From Allosphingosinicella sp. (GTDB lineage Bacteria > Pseudomonadota > Alphaproteobacteria > Sphingomonadales > Sphingomonadaceae), in assembly GCF_044225925.1 (NCBI RefSeq), contig NZ_JBGAHY010000020.1: DNA of 64,000 nt, one strand, 5' to 3'. Each line of letters opens with the position of its first letter. Position 1 is the stretch's first letter. The position numbers and the translations under genes are program-made. The notes beneath the pieces are model-generated. The model searched no databases. It was not told the DNA's origin and saw nothing but the letters and a program-made list of their open reading frames with translations. Of this stretch, positions 52,027-55,498 are shown one piece after another.

Positions 52027-52959
52027 CTAGTTCGGTTCTCCGGCCGCACGGGCGGGCGCGATGACCACGGGCCGCCAGGTTATGCCGCGCCGGTCCAACT
52101 CCCGCGCGGAGCTTTCAACGCCGCTTAGCGCAGCCTGTCGCCACCAGCGCACAGCCTCGGCCTCGTCGCGCGCCAGGCCGCCGCGTCCCTCGGCATACAT
52201 GAAGCCAAGCCCGTGCATTCCCGTGGAATTCCCGAGTGCCGCCGATTGCCTGTACAGGCGGAGTGCTTCCACATCGTTGCGCGGGACGCCGCGTCCTGCG
52301 ACATACATGTTGCCGAGGGCGGCCATTGCCATGTCGTGGCCTGCCAGCGCTGCGCGCCGGTACCAACGCACCGCCTCCGCGTCGTCGCGCGGCCCGCCAA
52401 GCCCCTGCGCGAACATCAGGCCGAGATGATACATGGCGTTGATATGCCCCGCCGTGGCCGCCCGCCGCATCCAGCGCCGGTCCTCCTCCGTCTGCAAACC
52501 GGCAAGCCTGAACTGTGCCCGGGCGTCACCCGCTTCGGCAGCCTGGCGATTCCATGCCGCCGCACGCGCGCTGTCCTGCGGCGCGCCGTGGGTGCCGCTG
52601 AGATGATTCCAGCCAAGCAGAAATTGCGCGCGACGGCTCCCGGATTGGGCCAGCGCCTCGAGATCGGAGAATGTGCCAAGCCGCAATATTCGGTCGGCGC
52701 CGTCAAAGCGGGCGTCGTCCCAGCGCTGCCACTGTGCTTCCGGCACCGAAGCCAGGGCGTCCCGCATGCGAGCGGCGCCGGGCGGCAAGGTCTGTCGCGG
52801 TGCCGGCGGCGTCGGCTGCGGCCGCTGGCAGCTAGGCAGCACGCGCCCCGACCGTCGCGCGGCGTCGCAAGCGCGGGGGCTGGGAGTCTGGGCCGGCGCA
52901 GGCATTGAGACCAGCATGGCGGCACAGCCGAACAGGCATGAAGCGAGGATCAGTTTCAT
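52027..52959 (-). CDS. Sel1-repeat (TPR-like) secreted protein
   Basis: Start re-picked at MKLILASCLFGCAAMLVSMPAPA (signal peptide). Repeated AxxWxRxAAxxGHxxAMxxLGxMY units. The ATG overlaps the OmpA-like stop (ATGA). Confidence 0.8.
   Translation of the reverse strand: MKLILASCLFGCAAMLVSMPAPAQTPSPRACDAARRSGRVLPSCQRPQPTPPAPRQTLPPGAARMRDALASVPEAQWQRWDDARFDGADRILRLGTFSDLEALAQSGSRRAQFLLGWNHLSGTHGAPQDSARAAAWNRQAAEAGDARAQFRLAGLQTEEDRRWMRRAATAGHINAMYHLGLMFAQGLGGPRDDAEAVRWYRRAALAGHDMAMAALGNMYVAGRGVPRNDVEALRLYRQSAALGNSTGMHGLGFMYAEGRGGLARDEAEAVRWWRQAALSGVESSARELDRRGITWRPVVIAPARAAGEPN
52846..52890 (-). repeat. 45-nt module encoding QTPSPRACDAARRSG (copy in the Sel1 gene)
   Basis: Residues 24-38, immediately after the predicted signal peptide. 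Near-identical to 53436-53480. Confidence 0.8.
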
Positions 52960-53549
52960 CTTGCTGACTCGCGCCGGACAAAGGCGATTTCCGCGCGCCG
53001 GTTCCTCGCCCACACGGATTCGTCATTGCCGGTGGCTGCGGGACGGGTCCCGCCATAGGCGCGAACGGCAATGGCGCGTGCCGGCACGCCATGGGCGACG
53101 AGATAGTCGCGCACACTGGCGGCAACGCGGCGGCTGAGGGCCATATTGTAGGCGGCGGTGCCGCGATCGTCCGTGTGGCCGGAGACCACAATCCCGACAT
53201 TGTTGTCGCCCAGCTGCCGCCAGGCGGTAACGGCCTCATCCAGCGCCGCCGTGGCCTCCGGCCTGATGCGGGCGCTGTCGAAGTCGAAATAGATGGTGAT
53301 GAGGCCAGGCATGCCGGGGACTGCCACCGCCGGCTCTGCCGGCACAGCCACACGCGGAGACGTCCTCGGTCGCGTTGGCGGCGTCACCGGAGAGGGGGTT
53401 GGGCGCACCCGCCGCGCGCACCCTGCCAGCGGATGCCCGGACCGCCGCGCCGCGTCGCAGGCGCGGGGGCTGGGGGTCTGGGCGGCAACCGTCGCGCCGA
53501 AGCCGGCAAACGCAGCGAGCAGGAGCGTCAGGCGAAGAAAGAACCTCAC
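52956..53549 (-). CDS. OmpA_C-like peptidoglycan-binding protein, secreted
   Basis: GTG at 53549 with GGAGG upstream. Signal peptide VRFFLRLTLLLAAFAGFGATVAA. IYFDFDSARIRPEA...SGHTDDRGTAAYNMALSRRVAASV...NRRAEI. Confidence 0.8.
   Translation of the reverse strand: MRFFLRLTLLLAAFAGFGATVAAQTPSPRACDAARRSGHPLAGCARRVRPTPSPVTPPTRPRTSPRVAVPAEPAVAVPGMPGLITIYFDFDSARIRPEATAALDEAVTAWRQLGDNNVGIVVSGHTDDRGTAAYNMALSRRVAASVRDYLVAHGVPARAIAVRAYGGTRPAATGNDESVWARNRRAEIAFVRRESAR
53436..53480 (-). repeat. 45-nt module encoding QTPSPRACDAARRSG (copy in the OmpA-like gene)
   Basis: Residues 24-38 after the signal peptide. It differs from 52846-52890 at 5 positions, all synonymous third positions. Confidence 0.8.
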
Positions 53550-55498
53550 CCGCACCTCCGCAAATGGTGGTGGTGAACCCCGGCTCGACGATGGCGAGGC
53601 CGGTGTCGATGCGGCGCGGTGGCCCCCTTGTCCGTGACGAAGCTGCCTTCGGAGGCGGATGGTTTCCAGCTGGCGCTGGCCCAACAGCGTGACGACCCTG
53701 TTCCCCTGGATCCGCACGGTCTGGACGTTGGCGGCATTGCCATCGACGCACCAGCGCCCGGCCGCCCAGCTGCGGTCGGGCGCCGCCGGGCGACAGGCGC
53801 GGGGCCAGGTGTTGCGAGCTGTCCGCCCTGGCCGTTCCTGTCCGGCGTCGGTGCGGGTGCCGCGCCCAACGGACCATCAGCGCCACCGCCACCAAAGCCA
53901 CGGGCGCGGTCAGGCGGGCGCCGAGCCAGAGGCGTGACCGGCGCGGGGACCGGCGCGGGGGCGGGCGGCGCCGGCACGATAATGGTCGGCGGCTCCGCCT
54001 CCTCGCGCGCTGGCGCCGGAGCGGGCGCCGCCAGCCGCGCGATCACCGCGTCCATCGACCGCAGGCGCTGCGCGGGGTCCACTTTTAGCATATCCGCGAG
54101 CAAAGGCCTGAGGCCCGCGGGCGCCGCGCTCAGGTCGGGCCCCTCGCGGCGCTTGCGGATCGCGTCGGCGAAACTGCCGGACATGTCCACTTTCTTGCCC
54201 CCGGCCACAGAGAGGATCAACAGGCCGAGACTGTACACATCCGTCCAGGCGCCGATCTCGCCACCATGTTCGCCGAGTTGTTCCGGCGCGACATAGTTGA
54301 GCTTGCCGGCGAAACCCTGGCCGATCAGAGTCGGGAGATTGCCGCCCAGATCCTTGGCGATGCCGAAATCGATGATCTTCGCCTCGTGAATGTCGCCGCC
54401 GGGCAGCATGACATTGTCCGGCGAGATGTCGCGGTGAATGGCGCCGAGGCGGTGCGCGGCGGCGAGGCCCGCCGCGAGCCGGGCGAGCAGGCGCCGCAAT
54501 TCGCCTTCGCTGCGGTCGACCCGGTCCAGCGCCTCGCCGAGGTCGACGCCGTCGATAAACTCGGTGACGATGTAGAGATTGCCGCGCTCGGGCTCGCGCG
54601 CCAGCACGCGATACTGGACGAGGGCCTCGTGGCTCAGCCGCGTGAGGGTCAGCGCCTCGCGCTGGAACATCTCGATGACCTTGGGGTCCGCCGCCAGCGC
54701 CGGGAGCAGCGCCTTCACCGCCACACGCTCCCCGCTATTGACGTTGCTGCCCTCGAACACCTGGCCCATGCCGCCGGCCTTGATGAAGCGCTTCACCTCG
54801 AAAATGTGGTTGAGCACGTCGCCGACCTCGATCGGGCGCGCGGGCGGCACGGTCGTCGGAGCGGCAGGTTCCGCCGGCCTTTCCGGCGCAGCCGACTCGC
54901 CCGTGCGGCGCGCCGTGCTGCCGGGCTTGCTCCTGAGCAAAGTGCGCATGCTCCCGGCAAGATTCTCGATGGCCTCGCGCACCGGCGCCTCGTCGAAGCC
55001 GCGATGGCGGAACGGCCGGAAATCGAACCATTGCAGCTTCTCGAGCGCGGCGAAGGCCTCGGGATTCTCCGGGTCGATATCCTCGACGCCGATGAACAGG
55101 ATCGGGAAGATGCGGCCCTTGTCCTTCAGCTCGGGGTGAACTTCCCTGAGCGCCGCCTCCCGCTCCAGGAACAGCTCGACCTCGCGGGCGCACCATTCGC
55201 TCTGCACGAAATTGGGCGTGATGATCGGAATGAAGAAGGTCGCCTCGTTGAGCGCGCGCGAGATTTCCTGCTCCCAGTTCGAGCCATGCGGGATCGTCTC
55301 GGCGTCCTGGAACAGGCGCACGGGCTCGCGGCCATATTGTTGCTGAAGCTCCTGGACCAATTTGGTCCGGAGCTGGCTCAAGCGGCCGTCGGAAAGCTGG
55401 TCGTCCTGACGGGCGTAGCTCCAGAAGCCGACGGGCGCCAACCGGGTCGGCGCGGGGGCGCGCGCTTCGGCCTTCACCTTATCCTTGTCCGACGGCAT
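53546..55498 (-). CDS. TIR-domain / Hanks-type Ser/Thr protein kinase fusion (3' ~400 nt of uncertain frame)
   Basis: ATG at 55498 with GGGGGAG upstream. TIR-like FWSYARQDD...GSNWEQEISRAL...FFIPIITPNFVQSEWCAREVELF. Kinase motifs AGGMGQV, VAVK, HRDISPDN, DFG, YVAPE. The stop overlaps the GTG of the next gene. Confidence 0.7.
   Translation of the reverse strand: MPSDKDKVKAEARAPAPTRLAPVGFWSYARQDDQLSDGRLSQLRTKLVQELQQQYGREPVRLFQDAETIPHGSNWEQEISRALNEATFFIPIITPNFVQSEWCAREVELFLEREAALREVHPELKDKGRIFPILFIGVEDIDPENPEAFAALEKLQWFDFRPFRHRGFDEAPVREAIENLAGSMRTLLRSKPGSTARRTGESAAPERPAEPAAPTTVPPARPIEVGDVLNHIFEVKRFIKAGGMGQVFEGSNVNSGERVAVKALLPALAADPKVIEMFQREALTLTRLSHEALVQYRVLAREPERGNLYIVTEFIDGVDLGEALDRVDRSEGELRRLLARLAAGLAAAHRLGAIHRDISPDNVMLPGGDIHEAKIIDFGIAKDLGGNLPTLIGQGFAGKLNYVAPEQLGEHGGEIGAWTDVYSLGLLILSVAGGKKVDMSGSFADAIRKRREGPDLSAAPAGLRPLLADMLKVDPAQRLRSMDAVIARLAAPAPAPAREEAEPPTIIVPAPPAPAPVPAPVTPLARRPPDRARGFGGGGADGPLGAAPAPTPDRNGQGGQLATPGPAPVARRRPTAAGRPGAGASMAMPPTSRPCGSRGTGSSRCWASASWKPSASEGSFVTDKGATAPHRHRPRHRRAGVHHHHLRRCG

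Follow-up and report, generated by a model that had tools for sequence, protein, structure and literature searches.

A TIR-Ser/Thr kinase and its leader-tagged exported partners in Allosphingosinicella: a possible family of single-pass envelope receptors

To our knowledge, most work on bacterial TIR domains has treated them as immune effectors that cleave NAD in the cytoplasm, while Hanks-type kinases have been regarded as signalling proteins in their own right. A periplasmic Sel1 protein that regulates a membrane sensor kinase is found in the ExoR-ExoS pair. Here we analysed a stretch of 64,000 nucleotides from the soil bacterium Allosphingosinicella sp. (contig NZ_JBGAHY010000020.1; hereafter the window), in which positions 52027-55498 encode a protein joining a TIR domain to a Hanks-type Ser/Thr kinase, an exported OmpA-like protein and a Sel1-repeat protein that is also exported. 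The closest description in the literature searched is that of OmpA and Sel1 as peptidoglycan-associating modules in predicted conflict systems (iSTAND; Kaur et al., 2020, PMC7159879). The individual domains are all known; what is new, with respect to the literature searched, is their combination in a periplasm-facing TIR-kinase receptor with modular wall-binding partners, and in that literature neither a bacterial TIR-kinase fusion nor an arrangement of leader-tagged partners was described. We propose, with a probability of about 0.4, that the locus represents an undescribed family of single-pass receptors, composed of TIR, kinase, transmembrane helix and barrel, with coupled leader-tagged envelope partners. 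The most likely function would be that of an envelope-linked TIR-kinase signalling receptor.

According to the list of open reading frames (ORFs), the segment 52027-55498 is filled end to end by three co-directional ORFs on the minus strand. In the sequence GTGA (53546-53549), the stop codon TGA of the kinase gene overlaps the GTG start of the gene for the OmpA-like protein, with a GGAGG placed 5 nucleotides (nt) 5' of this GTG, and the TGA of the OmpA-like gene and the ATG of the Sel1 gene overlap in ATGA (52956-52959). The start of the OmpA-like gene is homologous to the ATG of the partner gene in a related contig (L001). A preliminary description, made from the letters of this DNA, had proposed three overlapping genes that start with a TIR-Hanks kinase fusion; the overlaps were borne out, all the motifs that it quoted were found at their places in the ORF, and the four Pfam families that it had named (TIR_2, Pkinase, OmpA and Sel1) scored above their gathering cut-offs. 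The TIR-kinase of the window is identical to the NCBI protein P0001, annotated as 'protein kinase domain-containing protein [Allosphingosinicella sp.]'.

The N-terminal region both scored and folded as a TIR domain. It matched Pfam TIR_2 with 55.0 bits (cut-off 28; residues 47-162) and Pfam TIR with 28.2 bits (cut-off 21.3), and it carries the motifs FWSYARQDD (residues 25-33), GSNWEQEISRAL (72-83) and FFIPIITPNFVQSEWCAREVELF (88-110). For residues 16-205, an AlphaFold2 (AF2) prediction that drew on 32 homologues gave a model with a mean pLDDT of 90.5 and a pTM of 0.85. When this model was compared with the PDB by Foldseek, 67 matches were obtained at E<=1e-3, and 50 of 50 among the matches listed were TIR domains, including those of SPARTA TIR-APAZ, TLR1, BtpA, L6, RUN1, AbTir and SARM1 (E from 5e-6 to ~5e-4). 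TM-scores were moderate (~0.5) because of an inserted region in the TIR domain. Alignment of the family profile with PDB sequences paired SEWCAREVELF of the window with SKWCLMELAEI of L6 and SEWCHYELYF of TLR1/6. The Glu of the L6 motif WCLxEL is taken here to be the catalytic one, as is the equivalent position in plant and SARM1 TIRs. Since Glu106 is aligned with the Glu of L6 and TLR1/6, it lies at the catalytic-glutamate position, in agreement with the SxWCxxE match pointed out earlier, and none of the 131 closest representatives of the family that were aligned differed at this position. These relatives also conserve the Trp and further residues of the TIR core, and as most of them have no kinase, this argues for a family role of the TIR domain independent of the kinase.

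The second half of the fusion proved equally real. Residues 234-484 matched Pfam Pkinase with 115.6 bits (cut-off 31.7), with AGGMGQV at residues 241-247, VAVK at 259-262, HRDISPDN at 355-362, DFG at 377-379 and APE at 404-406. The catalytic set is complete (G-loop 241-247, K262, E281, D357 of HRD, N362, D377 of DFG and E406 of APE), and the kinase motifs were invariant in an alignment of 18 TIR-kinase homologues. This kinase is also 65-72% identical to a widespread sphingomonad membrane Ser/Thr kinase that has no TIR domain.

The TIR-kinase homologues, which are 50-90% identical and 650-860 amino acids (aa) long, extend beyond the kinase through a linker, of Pro/Ala or coiled-coil type, into one transmembrane helix and a C-terminal extracytoplasmic domain. 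A single transmembrane helix after the kinase was predicted in each of the proteins P0002, P0003, P0006, P0012 and P0021. The C-terminal module is usually ~80 aa long, begins with W-x-x-G-x-W and ends in Cys, with W, G, W and C invariant; in some homologues TonB_C, RodZ_C or DUF3617 is found in its place. Structure prediction gave an eight-stranded antiparallel barrel with a pLDDT of 95.9. In a local hidden Markov model (HMM) search of the fetched proteins, the barrel was detected in 14 of 26 TIR-kinase proteins, in 23 of 137 TIR-family representatives and in none of 94 kinase-only paralogues. A profile search of the database, for whose size the domain is too short, had returned a single fragment. 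Since the relatives have a transmembrane helix and a small periplasmic beta-barrel after the kinase, the family counts as receptors, and these predictions show it as a single-pass membrane receptor with a cytoplasmic TIR, a Hanks kinase, a transmembrane helix and a putatively disulfide-clamped periplasmic barrel of ~80 aa. The view of the family as soluble cytoplasmic TIR-kinases had to be abandoned.

Elsewhere in the window, two tandem paralogous genes on the minus strand (59448-59870 and 59883-60386) encode small exported proteins with a W-x-D-x-x-D-C ... R-C pattern. They were considered as standalone copies of the barrel and rejected, as the similarity was not significant (E of 0.03 and 1.1); their match to Pfam Lipocalin_4 (19 bits, cut-off 22.4) was below threshold.

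The family of the TIR domain became visible when the TIR region was used in an exhaustive HMMER search: 4,517 cluster representatives matched at E<=1e-3, and 194 of them also at the stricter limit of E<=1e-30; a word-indexed search with the TIR alone had given only 13 close fragments. E values between the window TIR and family members went down to 1e-84. Exactly one transmembrane helix was predicted after the N-terminal TIR in 92 of the 137 closest representatives, and among 103 relatives scanned with Pfam the same polypeptide also carried Sel1 repeats (11), FGE-sulfatase (4), MORN repeats (3) or WD40 repeats (2). In species-representative genomes the family was present in Allosphingosinicella, Sphingosinicella, Sphingopyxis, Sphingobium, Caulobacteraceae, Roseiarcus and Bradyrhizobium, with single matches in Nitrosovibrio and Actinokineospora, and the kinase occurred only in four Allosphingosinicella/Sphingomonadales loci. 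In the culturable Sphingosinicella sp. YJ22 (L024), the relative of the TIR gene gave no kinase match, and its ORF is cut off by the end of the contig. By sequence comparison, then, the TIR domain belongs to a large, mostly alphaproteobacterial family of putative TIR-transmembrane-ectodomain proteins, in which the kinase fusion appears restricted to a narrow clade, most of it known through metagenomes. The simplest history would be the insertion of a copy of the sphingomonad kinase domain into a pre-existing TIR-transmembrane-barrel receptor.

A contig of Roseiarcus sp. (L019) contains two TIR matches of this family, at 6001-6495 and 8235-8729, ~2.2 kb apart. The first belongs to a TIR-transmembrane protein whose ectodomain resembles an FGE-sulfatase-type domain. 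This contig points to paralogous receptor pairs with other ectodomains.

The two genes that follow the TIR-kinase gene encode proteins of different content that begin in the same way. The second gene matched Pfam OmpA with 76.2 bits (cut-off 27.2) and the third matched Pfam Sel1 with 111.4 bits (cut-off 30.7) over four repeats. Both share a leader design that consists of a signal peptide, a short Cys loop and a Pro-rich tether. A leader pattern searched over the 64-kb window was found only in these two genes, and the leader motif occurred only beside TIR genes in all loci examined. The site between purSQ and marR-emrAB is shared with five further contig types (L001/L002; L003/L004/L009; L005/L011; L008; L012), and L026 shows its marR side. 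In the window, in those contigs, and in L006 and L010, which lie elsewhere, the gene next to the kinase overlaps or abuts the kinase stop and encodes an exported protein with this leader, examples of the Cys loop being AQTPSPRACDAARRSGHPLAGC and AQSARHCATERALGRYPPGCP. Among the 10 distinct TIR-kinase loci with DNA available, 9 have such a partner behind the TIR-kinase. Kinase-less relatives in Sphingobium (L016) and Sphingopyxis (L014) have exported neighbours of Sel1 type, in which a signal peptide is combined with a Pro-rich stretch, and both Sel1-type proteins of L016 also carry the short Cys loop, the same kind of leader as in the window.

These observations bear on whether the three genes are mere neighbours with unrelated functions, which we regard as very improbable. 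Such a reading would fit the inconstancy of the OmpA_C and Sel1 cargo among relatives, and the promoter and terminator scan placed neither a sigma-70 promoter nor a convincing terminator so as to delimit an operon, with nothing above chance expectation; a single terminator-like match at a gene junction was likewise within chance expectation. It is at odds with the conservation of the 4-nt start/stop overlaps, with the restriction of the leader motif to the vicinity of TIR genes and with the recurrence of TIR-Sel1 adjacency or fusion in other genera. The preliminary description had made the co-conservation of the three genes a test of its proposal, and here it has to be amended: the exact set is not co-conserved, and what remains constant is the TIR-kinase with at least one leader-tagged exported partner of varying cargo. 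The co-conserved unit, as judged from these comparisons, appears to be a TIR receptor plus a leader-tagged exported partner, with Sel1 as the most recurrent cargo, and not the pair of OmpA and Sel1.

Compared with the window, L026 carries an extra leader-tagged c-type cytochrome cassette between the kinase and OmpA-like genes (L026:1186-1794, against window 53435-53494). It has a CAACH motif and a Pfam Cytochrom_C match of 34.9 bits and is bounded by copies of the leader repeat; the window has no such cassette. In the automatic annotation this gene was cut short. Because L026 has this extra cassette, cassettes seem to be gained and lost between near-identical strains, and the position of the repeats suggests that this may occur by recombination between leaders. 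In L006, a leader-tagged partner ORF (7998-8642, plus strand) overlaps the stop of the TIR-kinase gene, where the automatic call gave an ORF on the opposite strand instead. Partner genes may be under-annotated in GC-rich genomes.

The Sel1 gene of the window and its orthologue in L026 are 98.5% identical in DNA and differ synonymously at 8 codons and non-synonymously at 4; the corresponding ratios were 8:3 for the OmpA gene and 7:3 for the kinase part. These counts indicate purifying selection on all three, which shows that each is preserved in this lineage in spite of the damage to the tail described below. Around 53150-53115, the peptidoglycan-contact motif region of the OmpA-like gene reads NMALSRRVA. 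The canonical motif of Escherichia coli OmpA/Pal is N-x-x-L-S-x-R-R-A, usually in the form N-x-x-L-S-E-R-R-A, against which the Arg pair of the window protein is offset by one position; the same offset is seen in the L008 partner, and the L010 partner is canonical. Wall binding by the OmpA_C domain of the window may be altered. An assignment of the OmpA-like protein as Pal was rejected (TIGR02802, 97.1 bits against a cut-off of 125.35), and the Cys after its signal peptide has no lipobox context.

The copy of the TIR-kinase in the window departs from its relatives at the C-terminus. The last ~135-145 residues of the 650-aa ORF form no genuine domain and are the out-of-frame remains of the transmembrane helix and the periplasmic domain: the second frame holds a remnant of the helix, RLWLGARLTAPVALVAVALMVRW (53866-53934); the third frame, in which alone the barrel HMM matched (E 2.7e-12), holds DRSWAAGRWCVDG...ETIRL (53652-53792), the first half of the barrel; and GLAIVEPGFTTT follows further along the tail, again in the second frame. 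The kinase frame keeps only short pieces of the tail and the final LRRCG*. No transmembrane helix was predicted in P0001 and no match to the barrel HMM was found in it. The alignment with L026, a contig that begins inside the kinase gene and includes the marR side, revealed seven indels between 53948 and 53567 (-2, -7, -1, -3, -5, +1 and +2 nt), and since these cancel to multiples of three the ORF of the window reaches the ancestral stop. Over the next 2,094 nt (OmpA-Sel1-marR), L026 was 98.5% identical to the window with zero gaps. Mismatches amounted to 20 of 405 nt in the tail (4.9%), against 10 of 775 nt upstream (1.3%). As sequenced, the gene encodes a soluble TIR-kinase with a meaningless tail.

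We somewhat favour the explanation that this defect is a real and recent decay, or uncoupling, of anchor and sensor. The multi-base indels, the short-repeat sites at which they occur and the nearly neutral divergence suggest a real loss. An assembly artefact, in which a GC-rich, strain-variable patch of a metagenome-assembled genome was misassembled and the real genome holds an intact receptor like that of L026, is the somewhat less probable account. It would explain why the indels fall in C-runs and short direct repeats (CC, CCGGGCC, ATCCA), why they cancel to multiples of three (-9, -9, +3), and why the out-of-frame pieces keep a coding-type pattern, with 7 differences at the first, 2 at the second and 11 at the third codon position of the ancestral frame. 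The protein is known from a single contig, and in exact-pattern scans the deletion junction of the window was not found in other metagenome contigs, where only the intact L026 contig matched. Pairwise cancelling would however arise by chance in ~1 of 8 cases and is not decisive, several of the indels (5 and 7 nt) are atypical of simple read errors, and the tail mismatch is close to the neutral level for a segment released from selection. In addition, no frame change was detected in eight neighbouring orthologous genes (~7 kb), nor in the ungapped OmpA-Sel1-marR stretch. With anchor and sensor out of frame, the copy of the window is probably unsuited for study, and an intact type such as L001 or L026 would be preferable.

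Under the receptor reading, the leader-tagged proteins would act as periplasmic adaptors or co-receptors that link cell wall, envelope or ligands to the receptor barrel. Several features suggest that the partners tether or present envelope components: a leader that stays the same while the cargo changes, close coupling to a receptor whose sole periplasmic part is the small barrel, and the relation of OmpA_C, and of Sel1 as argued in PMC7159879, to peptidoglycan. A change in the envelope would cause the receptors to cluster or to be released, upon which the RD-type kinase domains would trans-autophosphorylate. The kinase might then switch on the TIR, or the TIR the kinase, and the TIR would in turn either cleave NAD+ or enter a higher-order assembly. 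Envelope homeostasis or immunity might be the purpose served.

Several observations weigh against this reading. The TIR of the window is compatible with NADase activity, which its conserved Glu alone does not prove because the aligned TLR1/6 TIR sequences keep the same Glu, and TLR1/6 TIRs are mainly known as scaffolds. The Foldseek matches of the barrel were weak, being lipocalin-like or of the type of penicillin-binding-protein accessory barrels, with a best E of 0.018. The receptor model may not apply to the genome as sequenced, because the window copy has neither anchor nor sensor. The OmpA and Sel1 cargoes are not constant among relatives, the DNA of the TIR-kinase locus L007 has no adjoining co-directional partner gene, and no partner was found among the called genes of the P0005 locus, for which gene calls only were read. 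Finally, neither the window nor the related loci contained a gene nearby for an NAD-product receptor (ThsA-like or SLOG/Macro), a phosphatase or an FHA protein; the output would for this reason have to be NAD+ depletion itself or the phosphorylation of unlinked targets.

The same evidence can be read in favour of an envelope-stress or cell-wall kinase whose TIR serves as a scaffold only. Much as in MyD88-IRAK, the TIR would help the kinase to oligomerise or dock and would not act on NAD; the output would be protein phosphorylation regulating functions of the envelope, possibly with marR-emrAB among them. The identity of the kinase to the widespread TIR-less membrane kinase, the conserved housekeeping position, the closeness of the core TIR motif to PNFVQSEWC of TLR1/6 and the existence of periplasmic Sel1 regulators of membrane sensor kinases such as ExoR-ExoS speak for it, although the match to the ExoR model was at domain level only. 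We nevertheless hold it to be unlikely, given that the Glu, the Trp and the TIR core are conserved in 131 relatives of which most have no kinase, and that no substrate or response regulator is encoded nearby.

TIR domains and Ser/Thr kinases had also led the preliminary description to consider an anti-phage role, for which we found no specific support. PADLOC, run with whole proteins and with the TIR alone, on models without curated cut-offs, gave generic kinase or MotB-like matches and weak TIR matches (best with the TIR alone, 31 bits), and no system was assigned; in NCBIfam every equivalog match was far below its cut-off. Together with the literature searched, this upheld the earlier statement that no described system combines these genes. 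The candidates rejected were Thoeris (PADLOC ThsB models <=15 bits; NCBIfam ThcB4 18.5 bits against 220), for which no ThsA neighbour (SIR2 or Macro/SLOG) was present in the window or in related loci; PD-T4-6 and MADS MAD6 (kinase-domain matches only, MAD6 114 bits against 460, no methyltransferase nearby); BREX PglW (31 bits against 990, no BREX genes nearby); Zorya ZorB (models matching the OmpA-like part only, <=46 bits, no ZorA); ExoR (42.9 bits against 450), MotX (31.2 against 330) and MotY (34.6 against 400); the PASTA kinases Stk1/PknB (NF033483, 134 bits against 450 for the kinase part only, no PASTA match in Pfam); and the TIR-like N-terminal domain of FxsC (53.7 bits against a cut-off of 130).

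An anti-phage or abortive-infection system would be a special case of the receptor model, in which the partners detect adsorption, injection or wall damage, the kinase relays the signal and the TIR depletes NAD+ or makes a signal nucleotide, halting the infected cell. It could draw on the invariant catalytic-type Glu, on structural matches that include the defence TIRs of SPARTA and AbTir among the best, on the hypervariability of the downstream cassettes between near-identical strains (cytochrome c in L026 and not in the window), on the two TIR-kinase loci outside the purQ site that adjoin an exported protein with PPC and caspase-like peptidase domains, and on the peptidoglycan-associating OmpA and Sel1 modules of predicted conflict systems (PMC7159879). 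We consider it rather improbable. In at least six related contigs, from several species-level lineages, the module occupies a fixed site flanked by purSQ and marR-emrAB. No integrase is nearby, and no transfer RNA (tRNA) lies in the 29 kb scanned (window 35-64 kb). The tblastn searches returned no matches in phages and only kinase-region matches in plasmids, with none that were full-length or covered the TIR region; the profile scores were those given above, and no ThsA-like effector is adjacent. These results agree with the earlier view of a resident, non-mobile module and with the purSQ and marR-emrAB flanks then proposed. A periplasmic sensor is, as far as we know, unusual among phage-defence TIR systems, which also counts against a role in defence.

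At the two loci outside the purQ/marR site (L010:9108-10787 and the P0005 locus), the protein with PPC and caspase-like (Peptidase_C14; 53 bits in L010) domains is encoded just downstream. This neighbour hints at a theme of cell death or conflict and is absent from the window. The G+C content is 0.70-0.73 across 52000-54500 of the window, against 0.64-0.68 in the flanks, a rise that probably reflects Pro/Ala/Arg-rich linkers and not foreign origin. The coordinates of the features are collected in Table 1, together with the cargoes of the leader-tagged partners.

Table 1. Features of the TIR-kinase locus and cargo domains of leader-tagged partners; positions are those of the window.
Feature	Position or loci	Strand	Details and basis
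TIR-Ser/Thr kinase ORF	53546..55498	-	650 aa as sequenced; ORF list, Pfam, exact database match P0001
TIR domain, residues ~23-188, N-terminal, predicted cytoplasmic	54935..55432	-	AF2 model, Foldseek, Pfam
Glu106 codon, W-x-x-x-E motif (W102...E106)	55181..55183	-	Profile-to-PDB alignment; codon checked
Hanks-type kinase domain, residues 226-495	54014..54823	-	Pfam; motifs conserved in homologues; codons checked
Frame-scrambled tail of TIR-kinase ORF	53546..53950	-	Homologue alignment, tblastn by frame, nucleotide alignment to L026, HMM of the C-terminal domain
Exported OmpA_C (peptidoglycan-binding type) protein, 197 aa	52956..53549	-	Leader 53418-53549, OmpA_C domain 52998-53291; Pfam, translation
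Direct repeat copy 1 (73 nt), encodes leader peptide AQTPSPRACDAARRSG..C, OmpA-like gene	53411..53483	.	79% identity to copy 2
Exported Sel1-repeat protein, 310 aa	52027..52959	-	Leader 52828-52959, repeats ~52084-52551; Pfam, translation
Direct repeat copy 2 (73 nt), leader-encoding, Sel1 gene	52821..52893	.	Repeat search
purS-purQ, upstream flank (context)	55590..56503	-	tblastn with L003 orthologues, 85-89% identity, single frame; orthologues match Pfam PurS, GATase_5
marR-emrA-emrB, downstream flank (context), co-directional	48729..51926	-	tblastn, 72-76% identity, single frame; orthologues match Pfam MarR, HH_EMRA, MFS_1
Cargo OmpA_C	window, L008, L010, L026		
Cargo Sel1 repeats	window, L001, L026		
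Cargo Cys-rich Sel1-like repeats	L001 (two genes)		
Cargo beta-helix	L003		
Cargo c-type cytochrome	L026		
Cargo unnamed Cys-capped beta domain	L005, L008, L010, L012		

Should the partners feed envelope information into the TIR-kinase, this would constitute a new bacterial route of surface sensing, a new regulation of a TIR enzyme, by phosphorylation or membrane clustering, and a tractable bacterial counterpart of the TLR-IRAK arrangement. The shared leader peptide would be a candidate for a new docking tag of periplasmic proteins. A wider and more doubtful proposal is that of a large undescribed alphaproteobacterial class of Toll-like transmembrane TIR receptors, in which interchangeable leader-tagged co-receptors (OmpA_C, Sel1, cytochrome c and others) would monitor the envelope and NAD+-consuming TIR signalling would follow a breach by phage, predator or toxin, the Allosphingosinicella branch having added an IRAK-like Hanks kinase as amplifier or gate. 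Such a class would amount to a bacterial receptor pathway with TIR and kinase in one polypeptide.

Compared with known systems, the locus has a TIR fold in common with Thoeris ThsB, SPARTA TIR-APAZ, AbTir and the TIR effectors of CBASS/Pycsar, and like them a Glu at the catalytic position. It differs from these defence TIRs in that it has no ThsA, Ago, SAVED or cyclase partner and profile scores far below thresholds, and in that its family is predicted to be membrane-anchored, with a periplasmic sensor, a fused kinase and a fixed housekeeping site. The PD-T4-6 and MADS MAD6 kinases share the Hanks kinase domain (PADLOC E 2e-45 to 9e-47), but the nearest kinases here are the sphingomonad kinase-only membrane paralogues (65-72% identity), which are not known to act in defence. 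The iSTAND ternary conflict systems have transmembrane-anchored OmpA, Sel1, PASTA or PEGA modules (PMC7159879), and are alike in using OmpA and Sel1 as peptidoglycan-associating modules beside signalling or effector domains, of which TIR is a possible one; the present locus has no vWA, MoxR or STAND ATPase genes and combines a putative receptor kinase with separate exported adaptors.

The PASTA kinases of Gram-positive bacteria (PknB/Stk1) resemble the family in having a Hanks kinase, one transmembrane helix and an extracytoplasmic module, which in their case is tied to peptidoglycan sensing. PASTA repeats are absent here, a TIR domain is added, and wall binding would come in trans through the OmpA_C protein. 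In the ExoR-ExoS/ChvI system of alphaproteobacteria, a periplasmic Sel1 protein is encoded with a membrane sensor kinase on which it is presumed to act, as may be the case here; ExoS, unlike the kinase of the window, is a histidine kinase, and ExoR has neither a Cys-loop leader nor a TIR partner.

The logic of the putative receptor finds its counterpart in Toll/IL-1 receptor-MyD88-IRAK and in Toll-Tube-Pelle of Drosophila, where a single-pass receptor with the sensor outside also couples a cytoplasmic TIR to a Ser/Thr kinase. In the family described here TIR and kinase lie in one polypeptide and in reversed orientation, with the TIR at the N-terminus and the sensor at the C-terminus; there are no death domains and no leucine-rich-repeat ectodomain, and the kinase, of the bacterial Hanks type, has its nearest relatives among sphingomonad paralogues. 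The core motif of the TIR domain is strikingly close to PNFVQSEWC-x-x-E of TLR1/6. The resemblance of the architecture to TLR-IRAK is an analogy of logic and not a demonstrated shared descent.

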